A DNA stretch of 64,000 bases, taken from contig OZ287705.1 in the NCBI GenBank assembly GCA_965649825.1, positions 310,001-374,000 of the forward strand. The letters run 5' to 3'. Below the pieces are notes generated by a model, which saw only the letters and a list, made by a program, of their open reading frames with translations, was not told where the DNA came from and made no database searches. Of this stretch, positions 12,972 to 34,125 are shown in pieces (position 1 is the first letter of the stretch; the number at the start of each line of letters is the position of its first letter). Source of the stretch: Penicillus capitatus (Eukaryota > Plantae > Chlorophyta). The position numbers were made by a program, and so were the translations under genes.

Positions 12972-12976
12972 GTTTC
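12972..12976 (+). other. Left target-site duplication GTTTC of the TRIM+Gypsy composite
   Basis: gtttc directly precedes tgtgaa at 12977, and the same gtttc follows ttcaca at 22416-22420. Confidence 0.9.
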
Positions 12977-13265
12977 TGTGAACGTCGACCCGAGGGCCGA
13001 GTCCGGACCGGATGGCGAGCCGCGCAGGGAAACTCTGTCGGCAATGGCTATTTACATAGCTAGACAGATACAGCACGGCAGCTCCGTTTAAATACCCCGG
13101 ATTAGGAGGGTCACATCATTACGTAAGGCATATCGTCACACCTCTGTCACACGTCTCGTCCTGCGCTCCAATGATGTTCTGCTGGCGTGGCGCCACAGGG
13201 ACGGTTGGCGCGCCAGCAGCGACTCCTCGACAGATGACTCGAGGCAGAACCAGTGACCCTTCACA
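12977..13265 (-). repeat. TRIM 3' LTR (289 bp)
   Basis: Direct repeat of 13709-13997 with TG..CA ends. Confidence 0.95.
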
Positions 13266-13283
13266 TGGGCGCACCCGCATTCC
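13266..13283 (-). other. TRIM motif at the plus-strand priming (PPT) position: GGAATGCGGGTGCGCCCA
   Basis: These 18 nt are identical to 14626-14643 of the Gypsy and abut the 3' LTR. Confidence 0.75.
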
Positions 13284-13695
13284 TGCTGATGCACACTCCG
13301 AGGCACTCTCGCTTCACCACCCTGCTGCTTCCCCTTGCAGCTCTGACACTGACAGGATGAGCGGCGGCGGACAGCACAGGAGAAAACGCAGCGGAAGTCT
13401 TTGTCTCTCGCTGTCCCGAAGCACAGTCTTCAATCTTCACGCACGGTCTTCGGTCTTCACGTCTCCCGAGGCGGTCAGCGAGTCAGACCTGCCCCCGACG
13501 CGGGGCAGCGCTCAGCGCCAGTCCCTCGGTTACGCACCACTCTGGGTCTCCGCTCAGACCCTGCGCTCGAACCCGCTCAAGCGCAGCGGAAGTCTTGAAA
13601 TGCGGGCAGCGCGGCAGCGGATTCTTGGTGGACGGCGCAGAGGATGAAAACGAAAACGGCGCAGTGAGTCGGTGAAAGCCGCACTCACGTAGGCT

Positions 13696-13708
13696 CGCTC
13701 CGAAACCA
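13696..13708 (-). other. TRIM primer-binding site TGGTTTCGGAGCG
   Basis: Abuts the 5' LTR, starts with TGG, and is identical over 13 nt to the Gypsy PBS. Confidence 0.85.
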
Positions 13709-13997
13709 TGTGAACGTCGACCCGAGGGCCGAGTCCGGACCGGATGGCGAGCCGCGCAGGGAAACTCTGTCGGCAATGGCTATTTACATAGCTAGACAGA
13801 TACAGCACGGCAGCTCCGTTTAAATACCCCGGATTAGGAGGGTCACATCATTACGTAAGGCATATCGTCACACCTCTGTCACACGTCTCGTCCTGCGCTC
13901 CAATGATGTTCTGCTGGCGTGGCGCCACAGGGACGGTTGGCGCGCCAGCAGCGACTCCTCGACAGATGACTCGAGGCAGAACCAGTGACCCTTCACA
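13709..13997 (-). repeat. TRIM 5' LTR (289 bp); TATA-like TATTTAA at 13820-13826 (minus strand)
   Basis: Direct repeat of 12977-13265, followed on the minus strand by the PBS. Confidence 0.95.
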
Positions 13998-13998
13998 T

Positions 13999-14625
13999 TG
14001 TGAAGATTCATCTTTCCCGGCCTTCTTGCCGACCTCCGTCACGATGTCTTCCGCCCTTACTTTGTGGACGGGTGGTGGCGGCACGCTCGGCAGGACCGGG
14101 CCTTCGACGTCTCCGGAATGACTCATTTCACAAGCGCAGCGGAAGTCTTGGAAATAGAAGGAGTGATGAGCGGTTCTTGAGGGGTTAGCGACGTTTTGGG
14201 AAGTTCAGAGGTTGCAGCCAAGAGACAACTTGTTACAACTGAGAAGTAGACAGCGAATGTTTTGACGGATTGTATGTGATTCAGAACACAAGTGCAAACT
14301 TTGATGTTTTTTACGAAAGGTGTTTTTATGTGTCAAAACCTTGCTTAAATACTCCGACCCCGATGTGACGACAGGAAAATCAGCTGAACTTCAAGAGTGA
14401 GTTCGCAATGAGGTTCCCACTGAAACCAGGTAATTCATCATGAACTTCTAGAAGTTTCCTAGGAACTTCTTAGGAACTCACTCCCAGTCACCATTACTTA
14501 TTCGCGACTCAGCAGCGACGGTTACGTCGCACAGCCAAAGACGCGACAAGTGCCAAGTGACAGGAATATCATTATTACAGAGACGTCCCATCACCGTTTT
14601 GTCAGAATTGCGCCATTCTTTCACA
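13999..14625 (-). repeat. Gypsy 3' LTR (627 bp)
   Basis: Direct repeat of 21789-22415 with TGTGAA..TTCACA ends. Confidence 0.97.
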
Positions 14626-14643
14626 TGGGCGCACCCGCATTCC
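14626..14643 (-). other. Gypsy motif at the PPT position (non-polypurine, ends in CCA)
   Basis: The sense strand reads GGAATGCGGGTGCGCCCA|TGTGAA, and the TRIM carries the same motif. Confidence 0.75.
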
Positions 14644-14732
14644 CGTTGCGCAAACTCCGATGTGCGGAGCAAAGAAGAAAACCAGCCCACACAGCCTACC
14701 TAGTTAAAATACTGATGACAGCAGATGGTTCT

Positions 14733-15752
14733 TCAGGCGCGACGGCGTATGAGCGCCCGGGGGTCCGAAACCCCCACCTTCGTTGTCTGCGACTGGTACA
14801 GATTTCCATTTACTCTATCTCGCGTCAGGTCGAAAGGCTGCATTATCTCTCTCCCCAGCCTCGTCTCCACCTTGTCTCCCGCGACGGTGAAATTGCAGAC
14901 TTCCATGTGGGGGCCGATCTTCACCCTCGCGGCGGTGCTGCCCACTATCACGCTTGTGCCGCCTTCACTGCGAATGACACGTCCCTCGATTCCTGGCGGG
15001 AGGGGCCCTTGGAGAGGCTGGACACGGAGTCCAAGCAGTTCCGCAGTCGCTCTGCTGACCACGTGACCCGAGAGCTCGGGGTCAATGAGGAAACGGTGTG
15101 GCAATTTGATCTCCCCGAGCTCCCCTGCGGCAATGTATCGCGGTCCTGGCGGTCGGCAAATGGCGGTGAGGGGCGGTGGGTGGGCTCGCGCTGAGAGGAG
15201 CGGCGATTCCGGAGGGGTAGGGGACGGAGGCCGAGGGGGCAAGGGGCTGCGCATCCTTCGCCGCGAGCCCTCCCCGCGACTTCCGCGGCCGCTCCTGCGC
15301 CGGCTTGTTTCGCCTTGGCTGTTTCCTCCACGTGTGGCTTCGACAGGGGTGCTTCCTCTTGTGGCTGGTGTGCCGGGTCCCTCTGCGCAGCGTCGCTCAA
15401 TCTCGGCTATGAGGTCGGCCAGGGTCAGGGAACGACATTGCTCCCTTACCTCGGCCGCCCTCATTTCCGCCATGCTGCGGTCCGTGGTAGGGGCCAGGTT
15501 GTCTGGTGACGGGGTTGGGGTCACGCGCCTGAGGCAGGTGAGACGGTGCAGGTTTCCCTCTGACGCGGACGAGCTTCTTTCCCTCTTCATGGCTTCGAAA
15601 ATGAGAGCGAAGGCGCCCTCGAGAACTCGGAACGCGACAAAGACGGAAAGGCCAACGACGAATTCCTGGGCTACGGCCGGCCACGATTCAATGAATGTCA
15701 GGAGAGTGAGCGTAAACACGAGCGCAAAAAAGCTGAGTACTGCGAAAGACAT
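14733..15752 (-). CDS. Gypsy ORF3 (339 aa, env position): two N-terminal hydrophobic segments, an Arg/Pro-rich linker and a retropepsin-like domain
   Basis: Hydrophobic aa ~2-21 and ~31-52. The C-terminal FLIDPELSGHVVSRATAELLGLRVQPL...LGREIM aligns with the element's own protease MLVDSGSSVCVMP...GWEIQPL...VGVNAL. Confidence 0.8.
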   Translation of the reverse strand: MSFAVLSFFALVFTLTLLTFIESWPAVAQEFVVGLSVFVAFRVLEGAFALIFEAMKRERSSSASEGNLHRLTCLRRVTPTPSPDNLAPTTDRSMAEMRAAEVREQCRSLTLADLIAEIERRCAEGPGTPATRGSTPVEATRGGNSQGETSRRRSGRGSRGEGSRRRMRSPLPPRPPSPTPPESPLLSARAHPPPLTAICRPPGPRYIAAGELGEIKLPHRFLIDPELSGHVVSRATAELLGLRVQPLQGPLPPGIEGRVIRSEGGTSVIVGSTAARVKIGPHMEVCNFTVAGDKVETRLGREIMQPFDLTRDRVNGNLYQSQTTKVGVSDPRALIRRRA

Positions 15753-16025: not shown

Positions 16026-18887
16026 TCACATCTGCAGCAGCCGTAGCTGGTGCGAGTGACACGACCGGCGATTCCGCCCATCCAGTGTTTCGACCTCGAT
16101 GATATGCGGAGTGATAACAGCGCGGACGCGCCATCCCGACTCCCACTGGGCCGCTAGCTTATGTGCTGGCCGCGGCACCATGATTGCGACCTTGTCTCCA
16201 ACTCGCAGGTTTCTTCTCGTCGGGATGGTCCGCTCGTGTCTTGCTCTTCGCTTCCGCCGTTGGTCGTCCGAACGCTTCCATGCTCTTCCTTGGACTCTGT
16301 CCAGTTCCTCCTTCTGGAGCCGCGTACCATCGGCTCGTTTGCCCGTCATGACGAGACTCGGAGCGTATCCAAGCGCAGAGTGCCATGATTCGTTATACGC
16401 CTTCTCGATACGTTGGAGGAGTGACGGCCATGGCGCACTTGGGCCTTCTCTTCGGATTCGACCCAGGATGGTGCCAATTGCTCGCTCGGCCATTCCATTG
16501 CTCCAGTGAGCATAGGCAGGAGACAGTGCCATCTTCACGTGGCGCCGGCTGCAATACTCTTCGAAGTCGATGGATACAAAAGCTGCGCCTTGGTCACTTA
16601 CGAGCCGGCGAGGGGGCCCGAAGTGATATATCCATTTACGCAGTCCCGCCTTCGCGGCCTCGGCCGTCGGCCCTGCTGAAGCTGTGAGCATGACGTAGCG
16701 GCTGAATCCGTCTATCATGAGAAACACGTGCACGTTGTCTTCCTCCTTTTCCCAGTGTATGGGTCCGAGAAAATCACAAAAGACCGTGTCGTTTGGGCAG
16801 GGGCAATCCCACGAGCCCCAGACGGGTCGCTGAATGGGTCGTCCGTAGGCCTGACATTGCCTGCATCCTTGGACGAACTGTCGGACATGTGTTCTCATCC
16901 CTGGCCAATCCGCTCCCGTTGCTTTGAGGTTCCTCAGCGTTGTCTGCCAGTTGAAGTGCCCTTCGTGAGCCTTCTTGATCTGCCTCAGCTGGCCTCGTGT
17001 CGGGCCCGCCGTTGCCTGAGACACCTCGGCTGCGCCCTTTCCCTTACGGGGTCTGGATAAGAGGTCCGCGCCTTGGTTTTCTGCCCCGGGAACGAATTCG
17101 ACAATGAAGTTTTCGTTTCCTAGGAGCCATCCCAGTAGGCGCAGTACTCGCTTGTCCTTGAGACTTGGCGTGCTGGTGCTCAGTTGCTCGGCGACCGCTT
17201 GGTTGTCCGTCCGGATGAGCAAAGGAAAGTCCCCTCGCAACGGCTTTGTTGCTTGACAGGCCCACACGATTGCCTTGAGTTCCCCGAGGAAAGATGAAGT
17301 CACTTCCGGCACACTCTTGCTCCCGAGGTCGACGAGGTGCTCGTGGTTTGACCCTTTGGCCCACAGCAGATATCCCGCGTGCTCTCCGGACCAATCCGTC
17401 TCGAGAATGTATTGCGTCGTCCGGAGACCAGGCAGTTCGAGCAATACCTGTCGATCGAGGGCTCGCAGAAGCACCTCCCAGACTTCCCGTCGGGCTCGGT
17501 CCCACCACTTGCCGTCTTGTTTTCTTGCCTTGGCTTCTGCTAGCAGCTGTCGGAGGGGCGCTATCAATCTCTCGAGGTCCACAATGGTTCGCCTCAGATA
17601 GGAGAGCACTCCGATGAGGCGCTCAAGATCTTTCCAGTGCGTCACCTTTCCGAGTTGGGTCCAGCGACTGCGGAAGTAGTCTGTCAGCGTCCACGACCCA
17701 TGCGACAGTTCCATCCCCAGGAACTTGACTTTCGTCAGCAGGAGCTCGGTCTTCGCGAGGTTGACCTTGAGCCCGAACTCCTGGAAGCGAGCAAAGATGC
17801 TGCGGACGCGGTCACAGAGTTCTTCTGGGGTAGTACCACCGACAAGGAGGTCGTCGGCATACTGCACTGCGCCGAGCCCCTGTACAATCTCTGCTACCCG
17901 TTCCGCGAAGAGGATCGGACTCCATGACCATCCCTGCGGCAGGCGCTTCCAGGCGTAACGGCGGTCCTGCCAAGTGAACGCGAATGCAGACTGCAGCTCT
18001 GGGCACACCGGGATGGCGAAGAAACCATCCTTGAGGTCCAGCTTCGCAAAGTACCTCCATGCCGGGTCTACATCCCACAGCCGCCGCCAGACGTCGATCT
18101 GGGTCATTCCATGTTTCTTGAAGTGAGCGTTCAACCAACGAAAGTCGTTGGTGAACCTGTAGCTCCCATCCTTCTTTGGGATGGGGTACAGGGGGCTTAG
18201 AGCCACTCGCTCACCCATGGAGACCTGTCGGAGATAGCCGCGCTGAACATAGTGCTCAAGCTGTTCGGCTATCTTGCGTCGGTCGGCGACCTGCTCTGTC
18301 TTGTATGATGTGCGCAACCCTTGCTCTCTGGGTGGTGTCCAGCAGACTTCGTCGGCTCTGACCTGGAGGGGCTCCATTGCGGGCACGATGGGGTGCCGGC
18401 TTAGGTCGCTGACGTCAGGAAAACGACGCGCTAGCTCGTTTCGCAGGGACTCGGCAAGGGTGTCAACGGCGACTGAGCCGATCTTGGCTAGCCGGACTAC
18501 CTCAATGCTGCTGTGTCCGTGCAAAGAAACGAGGGGCGTGGTCGGAGTGACTCGAATCACTCTTTCTGACGTATTGTAGACCTCACATCGTACCATTCCT
18601 CCAGAGGTTACTACTACTCCAGATAGAACCTCGGGTCGCTGAAAACAGCTAGCTATGGTGACGCCGCCTTCTACTTCTAGCTTCCACGGGAGGTACCAGC
18701 GTTCCCAAGTCCTTGGCGGCAAGAATCTTGGCTTTCCACTTTGCAGCTGGACTCCCTTTGGAGTGACTGAGATTCCCGTTCCGTCCTTGATCTCCCATTG
18801 CTGGTGCACGCGAACAGTGCCGCCCCTCCCGTGGCTTTTGGAGGGGGCAGTTAGTTTGGGTGGTGCGCTGCTTGCACTGCCGCGCAC
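16026..18887 (-). CDS. pol: Gypsy Pol: dUTPase-like remnant, RT, RNase H, integrase with GPY/F-like tail
   Basis: RT motifs: PIPKKDGSYRF, LDLKDGFF, LPQGW, YADD (17850-17861). RNase H: ETD..GELKA..RTDN. Integrase: H-x3-H...CRQC, CDF, SDQG, NGMAE. Confidence 0.95.
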   Translation of the reverse strand: MRGSASSAPPKLTAPSKSHGRGGTVRVHQQWEIKDGTGISVTPKGVQLQSGKPRFLPPRTWERWYLPWKLEVEGGVTIASCFQRPEVLSGVVVTSGGMVRCEVYNTSERVIRVTPTTPLVSLHGHSSIEVVRLAKIGSVAVDTLAESLRNELARRFPDVSDLSRHPIVPAMEPLQVRADEVCWTPPREQGLRTSYKTEQVADRRKIAEQLEHYVQRGYLRQVSMGERVALSPLYPIPKKDGSYRFTNDFRWLNAHFKKHGMTQIDVWRRLWDVDPAWRYFAKLDLKDGFFAIPVCPELQSAFAFTWQDRRYAWKRLPQGWSWSPILFAERVAEIVQGLGAVQYADDLLVGGTTPEELCDRVRSIFARFQEFGLKVNLAKTELLLTKVKFLGMELSHGSWTLTDYFRSRWTQLGKVTHWKDLERLIGVLSYLRRTIVDLERLIAPLRQLLAEAKARKQDGKWWDRARREVWEVLLRALDRQVLLELPGLRTTQYILETDWSGEHAGYLLWAKGSNHEHLVDLGSKSVPEVTSSFLGELKAIVWACQATKPLRGDFPLLIRTDNQAVAEQLSTSTPSLKDKRVLRLLGWLLGNENFIVEFVPGAENQGADLLSRPRKGKGAAEVSQATAGPTRGQLRQIKKAHEGHFNWQTTLRNLKATGADWPGMRTHVRQFVQGCRQCQAYGRPIQRPVWGSWDCPCPNDTVFCDFLGPIHWEKEEDNVHVFLMIDGFSRYVMLTASAGPTAEAAKAGLRKWIYHFGPPRRLVSDQGAAFVSIDFEEYCSRRHVKMALSPAYAHWSNGMAERAIGTILGRIRREGPSAPWPSLLQRIEKAYNESWHSALGYAPSLVMTGKRADGTRLQKEELDRVQGRAWKRSDDQRRKRRARHERTIPTRRNLRVGDKVAIMVPRPAHKLAAQWESGWRVRAVITPHIIEVETLDGRNRRSCHSHQLRLLQM
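18822..18860 (-). promoter_or_regulatory. -1 programmed ribosomal frameshift signal (gag-pro to pol)
   Basis: The heptamer C-CCA-AAC (18860-18854) lies in the ORF1 frame just before TAA. After a 5-nt spacer comes a GC-rich hairpin (18848-18822). Pol is in the -1 frame. Confidence 0.85.
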
Positions 18888-21800
18888 ATAACCGAGCGCC
18901 CGTCCGGGGCCACGAGTCGGTTTCCCGCGAAATCCAAACTCCAGCCGAAATCTCGCAGAGCGTTTACGCCAACGATTGGGTGTTCAGGCCCGTCCACCAC
19001 GAGAAACGGCACTTGTCTTGTCTCTCCGCCAATGTCCACTGGGAGGCCCACTCGGCCTCGAACCTGGGTTGTCACACCGTTGAATGCTTGGACTTCCATG
19101 GGCTCAGGGAGGGGCTGTATCTCCCAACCACCTTGTATGCAGCGTTCCGTGGGCATCACGCACACGGAGGAGCCCGAATCCACGAGCATCTGGACTGGAC
19201 TAGCCCCCTCAGCCAGCTTGGCGCGTACGTAGTAGAGACGCGATGGGTCACTACTTGTGGCGGCGTCCCATACCGCTGCCACTGGTGGCCTGTCGCTTGG
19301 TCCCTCGTCGGGCGCTCGTTGCTGTTCTTCCGGGACGTGCACCACTTGCTGCCAGAAGTGTGGGCATTCTCCGGTTGCGTGATCTCGGGCGTTGCAGTTT
19401 GCGCAACGTCTTGGTGGCGGAAGCCGCGAGGCCTGCATAGCCGGTACGGCGGGCCTACCCATTCGTGGCGTCCTTGATGGTCCGGGAGAGGGAGGTCTGG
19501 GCATTGTCGGCCTGATCATGGGCGGGGGCTGTCCTCTTGCGGCGGCTGCCTGTCGTTCTTCTACGCGATGGAGTCGATCCAGTATGCTTTCGATACTCCC
19601 TAGGCCTTGGAGAACGACAGGATGCGGGGCCTGCGGGAGCTCGTCGGCTTCTCCGTCACTGGCTGGTCGGTCTTCCCATGCGACGAAAGGCCTAGCAGCT
19701 TGCTGTGGCTGTCCTTCGTCCGAGTTGTATCCCGTTCCCCTGCCTCCGCGCCCTCGACCGCGTCCTCGGCGCCCTTGATTTCTCCCACGTCCTTGGTGGC
19801 TTCTTCCTTGACCTCTTCCTTCGCGGGTTCCTCGCGGGACGGTGGGGGAGGGGGCCGCTGGTGGTGCCGGTGGCGGTGCTGTCATGTTGGCTTCCTGACG
19901 TGGTGCCGCTGGAGGTGCTGGCGGCGGTGCCACGTTGGCTTCCTGACGGGGTGCCGCATTTTGTTGTGCTGGCTGCGTCGCTGGCTGCTGTCCGCTTCGC
20001 TGTTGTTCCCTCTGCTGGTTTTGATGAGCGGCAGCTGTCCGAGCCCTGCGAGGTCTTTGCGGTGGCGGCACCGGGATTGGTTGTGTTCGCTGTTGCGAGA
20101 CGAAGCTTCCGATAAAGAGCAGTGGCTGGACAACGAGCCAGTAAGCGACCCAAAAAGGGAAGTAAAGGACCGCAGCAGTGCCCCACGTCAGGCTGTAAAT
20201 ACTGCGCATGGTGTCCTGTCCGAGATCGACGACCGAGTGAACTCCGTCGGCGATCCTCTTGACCACGGTGGCGACCAGAGCTAACGTCATGAGGATTCCT
20301 ACCAAGGCCAGCACGAGCAGGATCAGTCCGAGGTTTTGATTGCTTCCGGCGGCCCTAACGCTGAGGAGGGCCTGGAGGCCGTCGACCATGTTCGGACTTA
20401 TGACGAACCGAAGCAGACCCACCGCCCAGTGCGCTGGGCTCACGACAAACCCATACCATCCTGCAGCCCATGCGCCCCACGTTCTTGTAGGTGGCGCCTG
20501 GACCGAGCGAGTAAAGGTGGCTATCATATCTGCGCTTGCCGCAAGCTTCCTGGTTTGCTCAAGAACGGTTGGCATGAGTTCTCGGACTGCCCCCAGCTCA
20601 CCCTGCAGTTGCCCCTTGATTGCGTTCACGCCGTCTTGTGCTGCCCTAGCGATGGCTCGGTCGATGACTTGGAGTACTTCCCATCCTTTTTCGTCAGCTT
20701 CGTCCGTCATTTGTCGAGCCATTTGTAGGATGCTGAGATTGATCTGGTTGACGGCGCGGGTCGTCCCCGTGAGGAAGGACGTGGTTCCAGCCTCAGCTGA
20801 CGACGGGGGTGCCAATGTAAACTTGTGGTGCCAGGCTGAGCCGGTAACCCGTCGCCGGTGCATTCTCGTCAGGGCTTGCTCATAGTGTTCTTTCAGCTTG
20901 TCCATCTGTTCCCTGGCGAGCTGTCCGCGTCGTTCGGCCTTCTCTCCCCAACGCCTGGAGAATTCGAGGGCGTCGTTGGCTATGTCCACCAGTGATCGAT
21001 TCTGATACATACGCGGGCTCACTCCCAGGTATCCAGCATAAATTTCCTTGGCGGCTTCCTGGAACGCGGCGTGTAGGACCTTTTCGTCTAGGTCGAAGAT
21101 GAGCGGTTGACACTCTGTGCGCCAGCCATACAATGTGGGCATCCAGGTCTTTACCAGTCGCTCGCCCAGGGGGCAATTCGCGAGGTCTTCGACTTTAGTT
21201 GCGAACGCAGAGAACTGGCGCTCAATGCGTTCCTCCATCGTATATGGCATGCCGAACATCCGGATGGCTGCCACATGCATGACTGGAAAGAGGCATAGGT
21301 ATACGAAAAAGGTAATCCACAGAATCGTGCTTGTCTTTCGCCGTCCCCGGGGCCTTGGGTTGTCTCCTTCGGAGGGACCTTCGTCAGGTCGCTCTGGCAG
21401 CTCATCCCTCCCGAGGTCTTGCAGCGCGTTGTATGCTTTCGTGGCGTTTTCCGACAGCCACTTCCCCAAGCGTGCGAACCAGTCATACTTGTAAGCGCAT
21501 GTGAGGAGGACGACTAGTGCAATGAATGCCGCGGTACGCAGGGTGCTGCCCCAAGCCCAATCCCAGAAGATGCCGAAGACGCAGAGAATGGTAGCGCCAA
21601 TAGCAAGCTCTTCCACACGAGGGCCTCTCCCTTCGGGTACGGGTGATGGTCTGGCCCGAGGTCGTGGATGCGGGCCGTGCTCCAGCGCTCTTCGACGGGC
21701 TTCTTCGGCGAGTCGTTGCTGCTCTGGGTCGGCTAGAATCTCTGAAGCGGTTCTCTGAACGTCGCGACTCGACCCCGCTCCGAAACCATGTGAAGATTCA

Positions 21801-21916
21801 TCTTTCCCGGCCTTCTTGCCGACCTCCGTCACGATGTCTTCCGCCCTTACTTTGTGGACGGGTGGTGGCGGCACGCTCGGCAGGACCGGGCCTTCGACGT
21901 CTCCGGAATGACTCAT
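18851..21916 (-). CDS. gag: Gypsy ORF1 (1021 aa): multi-TM Gag-like protein, CCHC zinc knuckle and aspartic protease
   Basis: CANCNARDHATGEC (CX2CX4HX4C) and LVDSG are present, with several long hydrophobic segments in the N-terminal ~610 aa. The ATG lies inside the 5' LTR. Confidence 0.9.
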   Translation of the reverse strand: MSHSGDVEGPVLPSVPPPPVHKVRAEDIVTEVGKKAGKDESSHGFGAGSSRDVQRTASEILADPEQQRLAEEARRRALEHGPHPRPRARPSPVPEGRGPRVEELAIGATILCVFGIFWDWAWGSTLRTAAFIALVVLLTCAYKYDWFARLGKWLSENATKAYNALQDLGRDELPERPDEGPSEGDNPRPRGRRKTSTILWITFFVYLCLFPVMHVAAIRMFGMPYTMEERIERQFSAFATKVEDLANCPLGERLVKTWMPTLYGWRTECQPLIFDLDEKVLHAAFQEAAKEIYAGYLGVSPRMYQNRSLVDIANDALEFSRRWGEKAERRGQLAREQMDKLKEHYEQALTRMHRRRVTGSAWHHKFTLAPPSSAEAGTTSFLTGTTRAVNQINLSILQMARQMTDEADEKGWEVLQVIDRAIARAAQDGVNAIKGQLQGELGAVRELMPTVLEQTRKLAASADMIATFTRSVQAPPTRTWGAWAAGWYGFVVSPAHWAVGLLRFVISPNMVDGLQALLSVRAAGSNQNLGLILLVLALVGILMTLALVATVVKRIADGVHSVVDLGQDTMRSIYSLTWGTAAVLYFPFWVAYWLVVQPLLFIGSFVSQQRTQPIPVPPPQRPRRARTAAAHQNQQREQQRSGQQPATQPAQQNAAPRQEANVAPPPAPPAAPRQEANMTAPPPAPPAAPSPTVPRGTREGRGQGRSHQGRGRNQGRRGRGRGRGGRGTGYNSDEGQPQQAARPFVAWEDRPASDGEADELPQAPHPVVLQGLGSIESILDRLHRVEERQAAAARGQPPPMIRPTMPRPPSPGPSRTPRMGRPAVPAMQASRLPPPRRCANCNARDHATGECPHFWQQVVHVPEEQQRAPDEGPSDRPPVAAVWDAATSSDPSRLYYVRAKLAEGASPVQMLVDSGSSVCVMPTERCIQGGWEIQPLPEPMEVQAFNGVTTQVRGRVGLPVDIGGETRQVPFLVVDGPEHPIVGVNALRDFGWSLDFAGNRLVAPDGRSVMCAAVQAAHHPN
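21776..21788 (-). other. Gypsy primer-binding site TGGTTTCGGAGCG (degenerate tRNA-iMet type)
   Basis: Abuts the 5' LTR and matches 10 of 12 positions of the plant-type iMet PBS TGGTATCAGAGC (recalled; the host tRNA is not in this window). Confidence 0.8.
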
Positions 21917-22415
21917 TTCACAAGCGCAGCGGAAGTCTTGGAAATAGAAGGAGTGATGAGCGGTTCTTGAGGGGTTAGCGACGTTTTGGGAAGTTCAGAG
22001 GTTGCAGCCAAGAGACAACTTGTTACAACTGAGAAGTAGACAGCGAATGTTTTGACGGATTGTATGTGATTCAGAACACAAGTGCAAACTTTGATGTTTT
22101 TTACGAAAGGTGTTTTTATGTGTCAAAACCTTGCTTAAATACTCCGACCCCGATGTGACGACAGGAAAATCAGCTGAACTTCAAGAGTGAGTTCGCAATG
22201 AGGTTCCCACTGAAACCAGGTAATTCATCATGAACTTCTAGAAGTTTCCTAGGAACTTCTTAGGAACTCACTCCCAGTCACCATTACTTATTCGCGACTC
22301 AGCAGCGACGGTTACGTCGCACAGCCAAAGACGCGACAAGTGCCAAGTGACAGGAATATCATTATTACAGAGACGTCCCATCACCGTTTTGTCAGAATTG
22401 CGCCATTCTTTCACA
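21789..22415 (-). repeat. Gypsy 5' LTR; TATTTAA at 22135-22141 and a 3-unit HSE-like motif at 22235-22249
   Basis: Direct repeat of 13999-14625, followed on the minus strand by the PBS. Confidence 0.97.
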
Positions 22416-22420
22416 GTTTC
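22416..22420 (+). other. Right target-site duplication GTTTC
   Basis: Matches 12972-12976. Confidence 0.9.
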
Positions 22421-26814: not shown

Positions 26815-29800
26815 ATGCGCATGATAAGAAACGGACTGGCTGTCGCTGGTGCCATCCTCTTTCTCCTTGTCTGGGCCGTCGTCAGTCAAACGCCGATCGC
26901 AGGTAATTCCTGACATTCACGAGCAGACGAGCATTCCTTCATGACACAAAGTCCTTTCTCGGCTTGGACCCTCGTCGCGCATCGCATCTTTTCTGCTCGT
27001 CTTCCGTTCGCTTCTTTGTATCTGTGGATACGTCGTCGACTGCGTCTGTGTGCAGACTCGAGATGCAAACTCCCTGAAGACGTTAAAGAAGAACTCCGCG
27101 TCGGTGAAGATCGGACATGGCGTATCACCGAAGCGCTCCAAGAACAGCACGGCATTCAGCAAATCATCGATTGCGCAGAACAAGGCGACGTCGTATCGCT
27201 GGATACTTCGCTGGCGATTCGACCGTCGACGAGAATCGTGATTCAGCGCGATGTGACCATAGTGGGAGGCCAGCGACTCGGCGGACGATCTCCGACGAAG
27301 CGAACTGCGTTCATCTGCCCTCCAGACAAAGGACTGTTTCTTCTGAAGTGCGTCTCGCCTGTCTTCCGCTTCACAAACACACTGTGGACTGCAGAAGCGG
27401 CTTCTCCTTGGTCAACGTTGTTATTAAAGACTGCCATCTGACCGAGGAGCACAAAGTCGCGGCCATCATCGAAGCGGACTCCTGCCAGCAGTCATCTTTT
27501 GTGAGGCCCAAAGTGTATCTTTCCAACGTGCAGTTCCAAAACAACACGAATCGCGGCGGATCTGCGGGTCTCGTCGTGCAAGGTCCGTCGTGTGACGGCG
27601 TGGTCGAACTGCTCGACGTCGCATTCAAGGAGAACGTGTATTCCAAAGCATCCGTGTTGGCGAGAGAGAACACTTTGACGGACGTTCGAGTTGTCGGCAA
27701 TCGAAGAATTGCTAACAACAACCAGGAGACGTCTTTCTTTTGCCTTCCCGACAATTCCTCATCAAAGGTGACGAAAATGACGGCGAAGGACAACGCGAAT
27801 GCGGGCGTTCTTTACGTCGAACGGGGGGAGCTGAACGTTTCGTCCTCTCTCTTCCAGAACAACGCCGGAAAATGGAACGCGGTCGTCGAGACTTTGTCGT
27901 CTTCGCTGATCGTGCGTGAAACGCGTTTTCTCGACAATTCCTGCAAGTGCCGCGCCGTGGCAGTCTTCGGACATCAACCACTGTCGTTTGACTTTTCGTC
28001 TTGTACTTTCGCTGGCAACGTCGCTGACGGCAAGGACAGTGGCGTTGTCTATGCGACGAATCCGCGCGTCCTGCGTTTTTTCCTATGCGATTTCGTCGAC
28101 AACGTCATACGCAGTTCGAATGGAAGGACGGTTGCGTTAGATGGGCTTGACTCGGAGACAAAGGAGGAAGGGCGAGAGATCACGACGGTCGTGGAATTCC
28201 TCCGCTGTCGGTTTTTGAGAAACGCGGCTGCCTATGTGACGGCCGTGCGCCTTTATGAAGTCCGCGCACGAACAGTTTTCTTCCATTCCTGTCACGTGCA
28301 GAACAACACGACACCGGACGATTCCCCTGTGCATCGACAGACAGTGGTCCTTGTGAAGGATAGTTTTCTGCACAATCTCACGATGGCGAACTGCACGTTC
28401 GAATCGAACGACTGCACTCGACATGTGCTGTCGCTCTTCTCCGCCAATGGCACGTTCTGGATCCGAAACACCTCCTTCGCCGACAACAGAACTCCTCAGG
28501 CTGGGCAAGGGAGCACGCTGAATGTACAGAGAAGAACAGTGAGCAACGAGCACTTGTTGGCGCAGAGCGCCTCTGACAATGGAGCCGTCCTCAGTGTGGA
28601 AGATTCAGAGTTCCGAAGAAATGGTGGCGACTTGGCTGGCGGCGCCGTGCATGTGGCAGATGAACAAACGCGGGTGGAGCTGCTCGACAGTCGATTCCTG
28701 GATAATCGCGCTGAGAAGGGCGGGGCGGTTTTCGTAGAGAATGCTCGCTTAGTGGATATCGACAACTGCACTTTCGCGCGGAATAGTGCCACAGATGTTG
28801 GCGGAGCGATACGTCTGCAGAGTGGTAGCGCAGAAATCCGGAAGTGCACTTTCGTTGAGAACACGGGCGAGCACGGCGGTGCGATCGATACCATGACGAA
28901 CATCCTGGTCCAGGACTCAGAGTTCTTCGGAAACAAGGCCAGCATCAGAGGAGGCGCCATGAGTATCAGATGCCTAGAATCTTTTCCTTGCAAGCCACGC
29001 ATTCTCGGATCCGCATTCTGGCGAAATCGAGCAGGCAGATCTGGCGGCGCTCTCCACGTGTACGCGAGCGGAACGTTGCCACTAGAGAACTGTCGTTTCA
29101 TCGAGAACAATGCGACATATGGTGGAGGCATTTCGCTGTTCCGTGTGCGGAAGAGTGCGGGGTGGTACATAACGAACTCGAATTTCTCTCGGAATAGTGC
29201 AGCGACAGGAGGTAAGGCACGAGATCCTTCCTCGTTCAAATCTAACTGGGCTGCCTTGATCGCAGGAGCGATTTCGATAATGGACAGTGCGGAAGAGCAA
29301 TCCTCGAATCGGTCGCAGAACGACGTTGCCGGGAGGTTCTACTTCAGCGGCACCGTCATCACGCAGAACACCGCGACGCTGTCGGGCGCCGGCATCTTCG
29401 CCGAAGATCCATCTCTCCTCAGCATCGACGGGTCATCGGTAAACGTGCCAGAGAAAACGTTCAACTGCCAAACCATGGAGACACCGCCGAGCAGTGCTCT
29501 CGGGAAGATTTTTCGAAACAATACTGTCGTCGGAGGACACGAAGAGAATCTGGCAAGTTTGCCTGTCGGCTTCTGCGTCTCTGTCTTCAAAGGAGGTCGA
29601 CTGGCAGACACCATCTCGGAAGACAGTACGTACGTGCTGCCTCGGTGGCGAAGCGGCGACGATTTCCCAGTCCTGCGCGTGATGATGTACGACCCTTTTG
29701 CGAACATCTTTGCGCATACCAGGAATCGAGACTGCAAGAGAGGGACGACGTCCGTCGACGAGCCAGAGGAGGCGTACGAGCAGCCCGTCAATGCAGTGCT

Positions 29801-31952
29801 GTTTTCAGAAGCGGAAGATGCGTCTATGGGCCGCTTCTTGATGAACAGCGTGTACGAAGACATCTCCTCCGGCGGCGGTAACATATCCGTGGGCAATCCC
29901 TACGTCAAACCAGGACGTTATCGACTCACACTGCTGGTTGAGGGATTCGAGCAACAGAACGTGACGCTGGAAGTCCACGTCCGCGACTGCACCATCGACG
30001 AAGAGTCCGACCGCGACGACACATTCTGTCGTCCTTGTGACTCGAACCAATACAACTTCCAATCGGCAGGCTTGGCGTGGAAGTGCACACTCTGTCCAGA
30101 GAACGCCGACTGCACGACGGAGTTCATACTCCCGAGAAAAGGTTTCTGGAACGCGTTTCCGTGCTCCAACCAGATGGAGCGATGCGTCTACAAAGACGCG
30201 TGCAACTTCACTGGATCGGACAAACTGGCGGCGCTGACCGAGTTTGAAACGCCTTGCGTCTTCAGCGACGACGCCATCGAGCAGTACCAATCCAGTGAGT
30301 GCGCCGAGGAGTACGAGGGTCCGCTGTGCGGGTCCTGTCTTGACGACGCAGGCCGACTGGGAAGCTTCGTCTGCGCGCCCTGTATGTCGGAGTTTCTTTC
30401 CGTCGTCGGGCTTCTTGGCCTTCTGGTTCTCCAGTTGATCCTCGCCCTCTTGCCGATGCGAGAGACACTGAACGCCGAGCGCGATCATCAGGAGGACAGA
30501 ATGACGGCTTTGAGTTTTATGCGACGAACGAGAAGAGCGACACGTCCCCCTGGAAGATACGAATTCGCTGGCGGCGGGCGGAGTTCTCGAGTGAGAACCG
30601 CGATCGTGCGAACTGGAACGACGACGATCCGCTCGAACGCCCGCAAAGCGAGCAGAGCCAAGCAATGTTTTCTTGGAACGTTAAAGGTAACCCTGTCCTC
30701 CGGACGGCGGTCGAATCTCAGTCCTGTCTTATAGATCACTATCAATTTTCTCCAAACAGTGGCTATTGCAGCCTCGTTGGACGTCTCGTGGAACTTCACC
30801 GCCATCTCTTTCTTCAGAACCTGGGGTAAGTAATCGTACTCGAAGAAAGAACGTTTCTATGCAAACTGCGCCTTTTCAGATTCTATGAGCGCTGCTGCCT
30901 CCGTCGGGGCTTCGTTGTTTCTGGACTGTTTGCTCTCCGGCAAAAGTGGAGCTCCACGAACTGTCAAGCGCCAGATCATCGTTGCACTGCTACCAGAGAT
31001 CGTCGCCCTCGTCATTTCGTTGTTCTTTCTTCTGAGAGAGCTAAAGGGGGACAAGGACTGGAACAGACTCCTCAGAAGAGCCATCCTGGCCCACATCGTC
31101 GTCGGCTACAACTCTTATCTCGTACTGGTAAAGGTCGCCATCGATGCATTCAACTGCGTCCGCGTGCACGATGGCATCCGTCTCGAAGACATCGGCATGA
31201 CGCATCGCTACTGGATCGCAGACACGTCTGTGGAGTGCTTCAGCAGCACCCATCTGAACTTCACTCTTGCCGTCTCCGTCCCACTGCTTCTCTTCGCCAT
31301 CCTGTTTCCACTTCTGCTGGTCATTCTTCTGGAACGCGCTCGTGGACAAAACAAGCTCTCGTCCAAGTGGACGCAGGAGACGATGGGATTCCTGTTTATC
31401 GTTTTCGAGGAGAACTACGTCTACTGGGATTGTCTGATCCTCTTGCGAAAGGCCATTCTCTCGGTCATCATCGTCTTCGCCTACAGACTCGGAGGCAATC
31501 TCCAAGGTCTTCTCGTAATGGCCGTCCTCGTCATCGCTCTCTTTGTGCAAACGTATCTCGGTCCTTTCAAAAAGGAACTGGTCAGTTTGAACGTACTGGA
31601 AAGCGTTTCCCTTCTGGTGAGTTTCTTTACTTTTATGTGTGGACTCATTCTGAACAACGAGAGATTTCACGGTGTCCTCATGAAGGGACTCGTCACGGCA
31701 CTGCTGCTCAGCAGCAACGTCGGACTTTTTGTCATTCTCGTTTTCTTCTTGGCGCGAAGCAAGTTGGAACAAGTCAGATTGGAACTTAAGATGATGCAAG
31801 CTGATGCCGGCAACGGGTCTCTTCACCAAATCGCATGGTCTTATCTGACATTCCAGATTGCACGTCTCCGGGGACTGATTGATAAGCAGGACTCGGTCGA
31901 CGACGCGGAAGAGTTAGTTCCGCAACCATCCATTGAGCTTTCGGGGGTGTGA
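26815..31952 (+). CDS. Large cell-surface membrane protein: signal peptide, pectin-lyase-like beta-helix (Pmp-type GGA[IV]/FxxN repeats), Cys-rich region and multi-pass TM C-terminus
   Basis: Exon 1 (26815-26902) encodes MRMIRNGLAVAGAILFLLVWAVVSQ. Repeats of the form F..N.A..GGA[IV] and the Cys-rich CRPC..CTLCPENADC..GPLCGSC follow, then a hydrophobic ORF at 30885-31952. GT-AG introns include 27348-27394. Confidence 0.85.
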
Positions 31953-33003: not shown

Positions 33004-33087
33004 ATTTAGCGCTATCCAGTCCCGCCACGAGGAGGCACGGCTCGACGATGCGTTGGCAAACGCACCGCCGTTGGGACCACAATATTT

Positions 33088-33552
33088 GGTGGTAATCACG
33101 AAATGAAATGCCATTTTATGGGATAATCACGAAAGTGCCTTGGGTAATCACGAAATGAAATGCCATTTTTTGGGATAATCACGAAAGTGCCTTGGGTAAT
33201 CACGAAATGAAATGCCATTTTTGTTTTTTCTTTTTTTTTTTTTTTGTTTTTTCTTTTTTTTCTTTTTTGATTTTTTGGGGTAATCACGAAATGAAATGCC
33301 ATTTTTTGGGGTAATCACGAAATGAAATGCCATTCCTTGGGGTGGTAATCACGAAATGAAATGCCATTCCTTGGGGTGGTAATCACGAAATGAAATGCCA
33401 TTCCTTGGGGTGGTAATCACGAAATGAAATGCCATTCCTTGGGGTGGTAATCACGAAATGAAATGCCATTCCTTGGGGTGGTAATCACGAAATGAAATGC
33501 CATTCCTTGGGGTGGTAATCACGAAATGAAATGCCATTTTGGGGTAATCACG
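33088..33552. repeat. 34-bp minisatellite (ggtaatcacgaaatgaaatgccattccttggggt), about 7 near-perfect units plus variant units and a T-rich insert
   Basis: The 34-nt period is readable from 33311 onward. Variant units occupy 33088-33310. Confidence 0.95.
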
Positions 33553-34125
33553 AGGATGTCCTTCCTTCCGGGATTCCTCAACCAGGTCGAAGGGAAGGCC
33601 GCCTACAAGGGACGACCCTCACCCCGCCTTCGGGACTAACGGGTGGGCCCGACGCCGTAGAAGCCGCTCAACAGTCCGCGCCACAACCGTCGCACGATTG
33701 CCGCCATCGACGGCAGCGTCTCATGCGCTGTGTGAAAGGTTCTTTATCGACGGACAACCGAACGACGAGTTCGACGTAGTGGGACCGGAGCTGCGCAACT
33801 GTGGGGGAGTATCTCCCGGAAAGAAGGGCCATCCGAGGATGTCCCCCCAATCCGAGATTCCTCAACCAGGTCGAAGCAAAGGCCGCCTACAGGAGACGAC
33901 CCTCACCCCGCCTTCGGGACTAACGGGTGGGCCCGACGCCGCAGAAGCCGCTCAACGGCCCCCGCCACAACCGCCGCACGATTGCCGCCGTTCTCGGCAG
34001 CGTCTCATGCGCTGTGGTAAGGTCTTCGATAGTACAATACTTCAATATGACGGACAACCGAACGACGCGTTCGACGCATCCGGACTGGAGCTGCGCAACT
34101 ACGGGGGAGTATCTCCCGGAAAGAA
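33552..34125. repeat. Two diverged ~283-bp tandem units (starting at 33552 and 33835)
   Basis: Both units share gaggatgtcc...gattcctcaaccaggtcgaag...cttcgggactaacgggtgggcccgacgcc...gggggagtatctcccggaaagaa. Confidence 0.9.

Follow-up and report, generated by a model that had tools for sequence, protein, structure and literature searches.

A Penicillus capitatus LTR retrotransposon whose first open reading frame encodes a predicted membrane protein and no detectable capsid

The element and its first open reading frame

We analyzed a 64,000-nucleotide stretch of the Penicillus capitatus genome (GenBank assembly GCA_965649825.1, contig OZ287705.1, positions 310,001 to 374,000; hereafter, the window), in which a complete long terminal repeat (LTR) retrotransposon lies on the minus strand. 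The element is bounded by two mutually identical LTRs of 627 bp, with TG..CA ends. Its first open reading frame (ORF1), which is open throughout, encodes a predicted membrane module in the place where a capsid would be expected, followed by a nucleocapsid (NC) zinc knuckle and a protease (PR). This membrane ORF1 is a real and selected feature, and it is lineage-wide. The features of the element are listed below; all coordinates are positions within the window, and aa denotes amino acid positions.

18851..21916, minus strand: ORF1, 1021 aa (protein P0001), with membrane module, Pro/RGG region, CCHC knuckle, and protease; it belongs to a 12-member 90% cluster of mostly full-length members.
21491..21607, minus strand: optional hydrophobic hairpin, aa 104-142, with two moderate segments (Kyte-Doolittle hydropathy, KD, 1.64 and 1.73); present in the P0005 family, absent from P0021 and P0022.
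21278..21328, minus strand: first predicted transmembrane helix (TM-A), aa 197-213, a predicted signal anchor whose N-terminal flank is rich in Arg and Lys, from hydropathy and flank charge.
20843..21268, minus strand: domain with a Cys pair (C248, C269) and long helices, aa 217-358, predicted lumenal; both Cys are invariant across four families.
20492..20842, minus strand: helical, coiled-coil-like region, aa 359-475, from a low-confidence all-helix prediction (15-82% identity, four families aligned).
20408..20479, minus strand: Trp-rich membrane-proximal segment, aa 480-503, from the sequence; Trp clusters precede TM-B in P0005, P0021, and P0022 too.
20261..20332, minus strand: second and strongest predicted transmembrane helix (TM-B), aa 529-552, then a basic amphipathic helix (aa 546-563), from hydropathy and alignment.
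20099..20179, minus strand: hydrophobic helix with a Pro kink, aa 580-606, which likely lies in the membrane plane or re-enters it (KD 1.76); amphipathic in P0021 and P0022.
19637..20098, minus strand: Pro/Gln-rich linker and RGG-rich stretch, from the sequence, with an imperfect 48-bp duplication at 19857-19952.
19547..19597, minus strand: short amphipathic helix, aa 774-790, seen by eye; in five of five families, 28-88 aa upstream of the knuckle.
19364..19405, minus strand: CCHC zinc knuckle (nucleocapsid), aa 838-851, from the sequence, upstream of the protease.
18854..19231, minus strand: aspartic protease closing ORF1, DSG at aa 913 (Pfam PF13975, E 1.1e-7).
18821..18860, minus strand: last ORF1 codons, containing the −1 slippery heptamer C CCA AAC, and a stem-loop downstream of it, from the sequence.
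16026..18983, minus strand: Pol, in the −1 frame relative to ORF1, with an unnamed N-terminal domain, reverse transcriptase (RT, YADD), a single RNase H, and integrase, from Pfam and motifs.
14733..15752, minus strand: ORF3, 339 aa, with two hydrophobic segments, a Pro/Arg-rich linker, and a protease-like end carrying DPE instead of DSG, from weak scores.
21789..22415, minus strand: 5′ LTR, 627 bp (TGTGAA...TTCACA), from its identity with the 3′ LTR; it holds the ORF1 start codon.
21777..21788, minus strand: primer binding site TGGTTTCGGAGC, from the sequence, directly 3′ of the 5′ LTR; the adjacent small element has the same site.
14626..14644, minus strand: purine-rich tract preceding the 3′ LTR, common to the large and the small element.
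13999..14625, minus strand: 3′ LTR, from its identity with the 5′ LTR.
12977..13997, minus strand: small non-coding LTR element, TRIM-like, bounded by identical LTRs of 289 bp and separated by 1 nt from the 3′ LTR of the large element.

A preliminary description of this DNA had quoted five hydrophobic segments in ORF1, and all five were located there (aa 104-118, 128-142, 198-212, 529-552, and 580-606; nucleotides 21607-21563, 21535-21491, 21325-21281, 20332-20261, and 20179-20099). Their 19-residue KD peaks are 1.64, 1.73, 2.10, 3.06, and 1.76, respectively, and a weaker, Trp-rich sixth peak (1.34) spans aa 489-507. The RGG region, the CCHC knuckle (aa 838), and the protease (DSG at aa 913; Pfam E 1e-7) lie downstream of these segments, just as had been described. 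Pol has no 19-residue peak of 1.2 or higher. Shuffling the whole protein gave two or more peaks at KD of at least 1.8 in 26 of 2000 trials, compared with 217 of 2000 when only aa 100-610 were shuffled; the number of peaks within this region thus largely follows from its hydrophobic composition. The same description had portrayed ORF1 as a polytopic protein with five to six membrane segments. The hydrophobic segments are there, but this portrayal overstates the core: only aa 197-213 and 532-548 are common to five families, and the remaining segments are optional or amphipathic.

A single GTTTC target duplication (12972-12976 and 22416-22420) brackets the large element and its small partner together, which suggests that the two integrated as one unit. 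Both carry the same primer binding site and purine tract, and a 23-nt motif common to them matches at 22 of 23 positions. The element is covered by contigs from four sequencing runs, with loose ends at 12976 and 22416 that point to further insertion sites, and the small element likewise has loose ends elsewhere in the sequencing-run contigs. Among the runs listed as containing the element, none was RNA. The element is intact and recently inserted, and its lineage is multi-copy. The ORF1 ATG and the first 42 codons (21789-21916) lie inside the LTR, upstream of the primer binding site, and hence are repeated in the 3′ LTR. A reading of the locus as a split-direct-repeat (DIRS/Ngaro) element was dropped because the repeats resolve as two LTR pairs and Pol carries a DDE integrase.

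Relatives, selection, and the search for a capsid

A search with ORF1 aa 95-615 recovered P0004 (a 12-member cluster) and P0005 (six members), and the search over 1.84 billion representatives recovered P0021 and P0022, at 23-25% identity to this region. The hydrophobic helix at aa 197-213, C248 and C269, the long predicted helices, and the Trp-rich stretch are kept in all four families, as are the strong helix at aa 532-548, the basic amphipathic helix, and the Pro-kinked helix, followed by the knuckle and protease. The hydrophobic pair at aa 104-142 is restricted to the P0001 and P0005 families. The 17-residue KD of TM-B is 2.85-3.18 in the four families, and 2.31 in the ORF1 of L001, a more distant locus described below. 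TM-A is flanked by five to six Lys or Arg in the 15 residues before it and by one after it (P0001 and P0005). Comparison with outgroup frames provides a stronger control than the shuffles: a pre-knuckle peak of KD 2.6-3.1 is found in seven of seven lineage ORF1s, versus any peak of at least 1.6 in one of 20 outgroup CCHC frames (one of the 20 having merely four residues upstream of its knuckle).

The membrane region is under purifying selection. Within aa 96-611, 31 of the 40 listed variants (the best supported of 51) were silent, compared with 29% expected (p 2e-10), and zero indels were listed. The module has been exchanged between families. P0001 and P0022 are 94% identical over the protease but 12-22% over the module, whereas identity between P0021 and P0022 is 75-82% over the module core and 49% over the protease. 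The membrane module and the NC-protease tail of P0001, P0021, and P0022 have separate closest relatives, which indicates recombination in the Pro-rich linker.

Searching with Pol revealed 28 relatives at 30-93% identity, plus six distant matches. A first metagenome scan found no relatives; the metagenome scan reported here yielded 64 loci, of which four are close. When 86 RT cores were placed in a quick tree, which included no named references and excluded 14 loci with short RT matches, 33 rows formed one RT clade (Shimodaira-Hasegawa-like approximate likelihood ratio test, SH-aLRT, 99; branch 1.22). The close rows of this tree had also built the profile that chose the RT cores. As to whether relatives share this ORF1, a question raised at the outset, the layout is present on both RT sub-branches, with L001 on the second; L001 is the sole further member with an ORF1 in context. 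Its 508-aa ORF1 begins with a hydrophobic helix and continues with a helical, charged stretch, a cluster of Trp residues, more hydrophobic segments, two knuckles, and a protease. Upstream of the first knuckle there are 262 aa, with hydrophobic peaks at aa 6, 117, 161, and 199 that leave a longest gap of ~92 aa, compared with the 198 positions of the Ty3 capsid model. A profile of the knuckle and protease gave five matches and no new ORF1 besides the L001 protein, and most of the Pol relatives P0027-P0052 are represented here by Pol alone. As a separate observation, seven of the 33 lineage RTs (L001-L004, P0044, P0047, and P0050) carry Asn at the last YxDD position (YADN, YSDN, FSDN, FNDN); all of them belong to one sub-branch, and a 52-member cluster is among them.

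A capsid is undetectable in ORF1 by sequence profile. Capsid-type Pfam families matched none of eight lineage ORF1s (E up to 0.5-10), compared with 14 of 19 outgroup Gags (E up to 0.05). Our own capsid profile, built from 11 outgroup Gags, scored at least 19.9 bits in six of eight held-out Gags, at most −2.8 bits in lineage ORF1s, and up to 1.6 bits in reversed controls. Across 107 frames of the element and its partner the best score of this profile was 1.0 bit, and Pfam found no capsid in nine other frames of the element. The initial impression that ORF1 has no recognizable capsid motif was thus borne out by profile searches that detect a capsid in most control Gags. The short helix ahead of the L001 knuckle aligns weakly with the helix ahead of the dArc1 zinc finger, in a match (E 0.0097) that includes the zinc finger. 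A profile search of 19 Gags, with a best score of 1.4 bits, did not support reading the short pre-knuckle helix as the remnant of a capsid helix.

Other searches gave no usable relatives. The ESM Atlas returned no usable match for P0001 aa 215-480 or P0060 aa 1-260, and a PHROGs search returned nothing significant. Matches of the A4 profile to PPR proteins were rejected as summed repeat artefacts, with no single stretch passing alone.

A proposed membrane-wrapped particle and its alternatives

We propose that ORF1 is a predicted two-pass membrane scaffold standing in the capsid's place, and that reverse transcription likely occurs in a membrane-wrapped particle; judged from sequence, we give this about an even chance. 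More broadly, a previously undescribed, deep lineage of LTR retroelements may have discarded the capsid fold of Ortervirales in favor of a swappable integral membrane protein that would bud lipid-bounded particles containing RNA, protease, and Pol; this proposal is as apt to prove right as wrong.

The simplest topology has a cytosolic N-terminus, lumenal aa 217-500, and a cytosolic RGG-NC-PR tail, because the knuckle and protease must face the RNA side. With two helices, NC-PR would be cytosolic and the invariant Cys pair lumenal, and the optional extra helix pair would keep this parity. In such an arrangement, TM-A would target the nascent chain to the endoplasmic reticulum (ER), with its basic N-terminal flank remaining cytosolic. 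The region of aa 217-500, with its Cys pair and long helices, would be lumenal, where the Cys pair could form a disulfide. TM-B would bring the chain back to the cytosol, and the amphipathic helices that follow would be embedded in the membrane surface, where they could induce curvature. The RGG region and the CCHC knuckle would collect the genomic RNA and the primer tRNA, and Pol would be appended when ribosomes occasionally shift to the −1 frame at the end of ORF1, leaving ORF1 in excess, as expected of a structural protein and as in elements that form particles. ORF1 oligomers might then bend the ER or nuclear-envelope membrane and bud a vesicle with cytosolic content, in which the crowded protease would free RT and integrase. 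Finally, the complex of cDNA and integrase might leave by back-fusion or rupture, the least supported step. If this proposal is true, a lipid compartment can substitute for a protein shell in LTR-type reverse transcription, and ORF1 would serve as a model of how membrane and nucleocapsid functions can be combined in a single protein, besides providing a compact RNA vesicle scaffold that packages itself. Since the copy is intact and its LTRs are identical, the proposal is directly testable.

Several points weigh against this proposal. When applied to ORF1, the term transmembrane is a prediction that derives from hydropathy and the charges at the flanks. In P0021, TM-A is weak (KD 1.38), and in both P0021 and P0022 the charge bias of its flanks is weak to absent. 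P0005, P0021, and P0022, which are tied to the element by 47-94% protease identity and the same terminal (H/R)PN, were seen without genomic context, and the count of silent variants covers only the better supported ones. In L001, Pol is broken by an internal stop, homology between the N-terminal part of ORF1 and the membrane module is undetectable (probability 1.6%), and the common layout may be convergent. The capsid searches have limits of their own: the Pfam profiles failed on five of 19 ordinary Gags and our own profile on two of eight held-out Gags, at least one held-out match is near kin of a training row, and, given the long RT branch (1.22), a capsid could be too diverged for profiles. 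Profile-profile comparison with capsid domains by hhalign paired aa 250-325 with capsid helices at 0.25%, in a test without power, as four of four positive controls scored below 2%. The two structure models, each built from four sequences, reached a mean predicted local distance difference test (pLDDT) score of only 47.5 (516 aa) and 64.9 (151 aa).

These last points bear on the alternative that ORF1 retains a highly divergent capsid, most plausibly aa 250-325, and has gained anchors that tether a lattice of the normal type to the membrane. We consider this unlikely. The helix spacing of aa 250-325 resembles that of the capsid C-terminal domain (by eye), a further point against our proposal; this is also the best conserved part of the module and the part that hhalign placed on capsid helices, at a non-significant score. 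The capsid fold has been described as conserved across Ortervirales (PMC6525542), and Ty1 Gag, a capsid protein, is reported to transit the ER (PMC3945221). Opposing this alternative, besides the zero profile matches, are the ~35 aa between TM-A and aa 250-325, which leave no space for an N-terminal capsid domain; the predicted topology, which would separate aa 250-325 from the knuckle by a membrane; and L001, whose ORF1 has no counterpart of this region. The structure models, confident solely in aa 277-358, predict long helices after a low-confidence beta hairpin. In the 151-aa model, the hairpin lies between C248 and C269 and is followed by helices of 24, 14, and 36 residues (block pLDDT ~70-89), and such a hairpin with continuous 24- and 36-residue helices would differ from the four short helices of a capsid domain. 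For the 516-aa model, Foldseek gave zero PDB matches at E 0.001 and VIA-align gave helical bundles alone (best Z 11.0, root-mean-square deviation 3.1, 108 aligned); for the 151-aa model, there were zero matches at E 0.001 in PDB and BFVD (best Z 7.6, root-mean-square deviation 3.4, 75 aligned). Blank searches from such weak four-sequence models exclude no fold family. A fold comparison of the kind suggested in the preliminary description matched no capsid, Env, or clear relative, but the models are too weak to rule out a divergent capsid fold.

A second alternative, which we likewise regard as improbable, is that the module is an Env-like or fusogen-like surface protein fused to NC-PR, giving an enveloped, capsid-less particle or a membrane route between cells or nuclei. 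It differs from the membrane-scaffold proposal mainly at the exit step. The layout resembles that of a fusion glycoprotein, with an internal signal, a Cys pair, long helices, a Trp-rich segment, a transmembrane helix, and an amphipathic tail, and the module swaps among families in the manner of env genes. In PDB, the aa 215-365 profile matched nothing but HR1 peptides of the coronavirus spike, at chance level (E 0.27 and 0.67), and our searches for similarity to an Env, fusogen, or movement protein gave nothing significant. Inspection by eye shows no conserved furin site followed by a hydrophobic fusion peptide, the basic motifs near aa 350 lacking such a peptide, and P0021 and P0022 have no N-glycosylation sequons upstream of the knuckle. 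Moreover, known Env-like and sORF2 proteins accompany an intact capsid gene. A trimer prediction for aa 217-480 scored 0.00, which counts neither for nor against this reading.

A third scenario, in which the capsid was lost and is borrowed in trans from another retrotransposon family, with ORF1 tethering RNA and protease at the helper's membrane site, appears very unlikely. It would fit the failure to detect a capsid in any frame of the element and the presence of parasitic partners at this locus, namely the small element with the same primer binding site and purine tract. However, the element retains intact RT, RNase H, integrase, protease, and knuckle as well as the frameshift ratio switch, and a layout found on both RT sub-branches would require long-lived dependence on a helper. 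Finally, it is hardly credible that the hydrophobic segments are helices buried within a soluble protein, with nothing spanning a membrane: three of the five segments are only moderately hydrophobic and 217 of 2000 regional shuffles match the peak count, but an uncharged 17-residue stretch of the hydropathy given above recurs in five families of 5-50% regional identity, L001 included, and a peak at 1.6 is lacking from 19 of 20 frames of outgroup Gags.

Returning to the membrane-scaffold proposal, two transmembrane helices are predicted across families from hydropathy. The original suggestion that Gag was replaced by, or fused into, a membrane protein is supported in that ORF1 is membrane-protein-like throughout the sampled lineage and has no capsid by profiles; its core of five to six passes is not supported.

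Other features of the locus and comparison with known systems

At the end of ORF1, we infer a −1 frameshift into Pol at the slippery heptamer. The hairpin that follows this site in the window is no better than shuffles (z −0.5); L001 has, at the same place, A AAA AAC and a hairpin of z −4.0. The element has the order PR-RT-RNase H-integrase, with intact catalytic motifs. Its one RNase H region (~aa 523-643 of Pol) lies right before the integrase zinc finger (aa 668); the dual arrangement of tether and new RNase H known from Retroviridae and Odin/lokiretroviruses is absent from Pol, where the Pfam scan gave a single region. The unnamed domain of ~115 aa at Pol aa 55-170 (18480-18830, minus strand) is conserved in 22 of 27 aligned relatives and has no Pfam match; it resembles dUTPase weakly in hhalign (E 0.03, probability 1.7%). 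In some relatives, RNase H and integrase are separated by a true dUTPase (P0043, E 7e-39).

ORF3 resembles a miniature ORF1, and a TATAAA lies ~45 nt upstream of its ATG. Support for its protease fold is weak (Pfam E 0.088, pairwise E 0.046). It had no fusogen match, and the element has no separate env gene with a recognizable fusogen. We speculate that ORF3 might regulate processing as an inactive protease subunit bound to the membrane.

Elsewhere in the window, a 1208-codon open frame at 27108-30734 (plus strand) encodes right-handed beta-helix repeats (Pfam E 6e-17) and is probably a host gene. Old duplicated blocks, probably host paralogues, are found at 57387-59989/60692-63307 (71% identity) and 2759-4203/37664-39100 (69%). 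Tandem repeats of 34 bp and 52 bp, followed by a ~290-bp duplication, lie at 33085-33581 and 33551-34125. Among the outgroups, a Gypsy-type locus (L006:4937-6823) has a long, Cys-rich frame 3′ of Pol with a C-terminal hydrophobic segment and an env-like appearance.

A literature search, covering mostly titles and the beginnings of abstracts, found no description of such an ORF1; families under a neutral name may be held in Repbase, subscription journals, or supplements, which lay outside its scope. The portions of PMC2774666 and PMC8321522 that it covered likewise contain nothing on such an ORF1. Overall, the DNA handling of the element is Gypsy-like, but a capsid is undetectable from its sequence. 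With Ty3/Gypsy elements (Metaviridae, e.g., Ty3; PMC6525542), it shares TG..CA LTRs, a tRNA primer binding site, a purine tract, a 5-bp target duplication, the order of protease, RT, RNase H, and integrase, a single RNase H, the CCHC knuckle, and a frameshifted Pol; Ty3 Gag-Pol was the first PDB match of the Pol profile. It differs from them in having predicted transmembrane helices instead of a detectable double-capsid domain, a fold that Dodonova et al. describe as conserved across, and ancestral to, Ortervirales (PMC6525542), and also in the protease at the end of ORF1, the extra ~115-aa domain at the start of Pol, and an RT on a long separate branch. With foamy viruses and Odin (PMC9040795), it shares the RT motif RLPQG..SP, and foamy virus RT and integrase came first in PDB searches with the single sequence. 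Unlike them, it has a single RNase H and no separate env, in a comparison made without named references in the tree; Odin retrotransposons are described as having ordinary gag and pol (PMC9040795).

Membrane proteins have been reported from several retroelements. Errantiviruses and gag-env-pol elements (PMC13524379) are likewise Gypsy-type elements that encode an ectodomain between a signal or transmembrane helix and a second transmembrane helix. However, their Envs are fusogens of the F or gB type added to a capsid-bearing Gag, whereas the module described here sits in the capsid position and matches neither. The sORF2/FAST-like proteins of the MDG1 group (10.1101/2025.03.14.642691) and the ORF3s of bdelloid elements (PMC5408684) are also transmembrane proteins without known env homology; that of Vesta4 has two transmembrane regions, cysteines between them, and a coiled coil (PMC5408684). 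In contrast to ORF1, these are short, separate open reading frames next to a normal gag, unfused to NC-PR. Finally, Ty1 Gag provides a precedent for targeting a retrotransposon structural protein to the ER through the signal recognition particle, but that Gag, a soluble capsid protein, goes back to the cytosol (PMC3945221).

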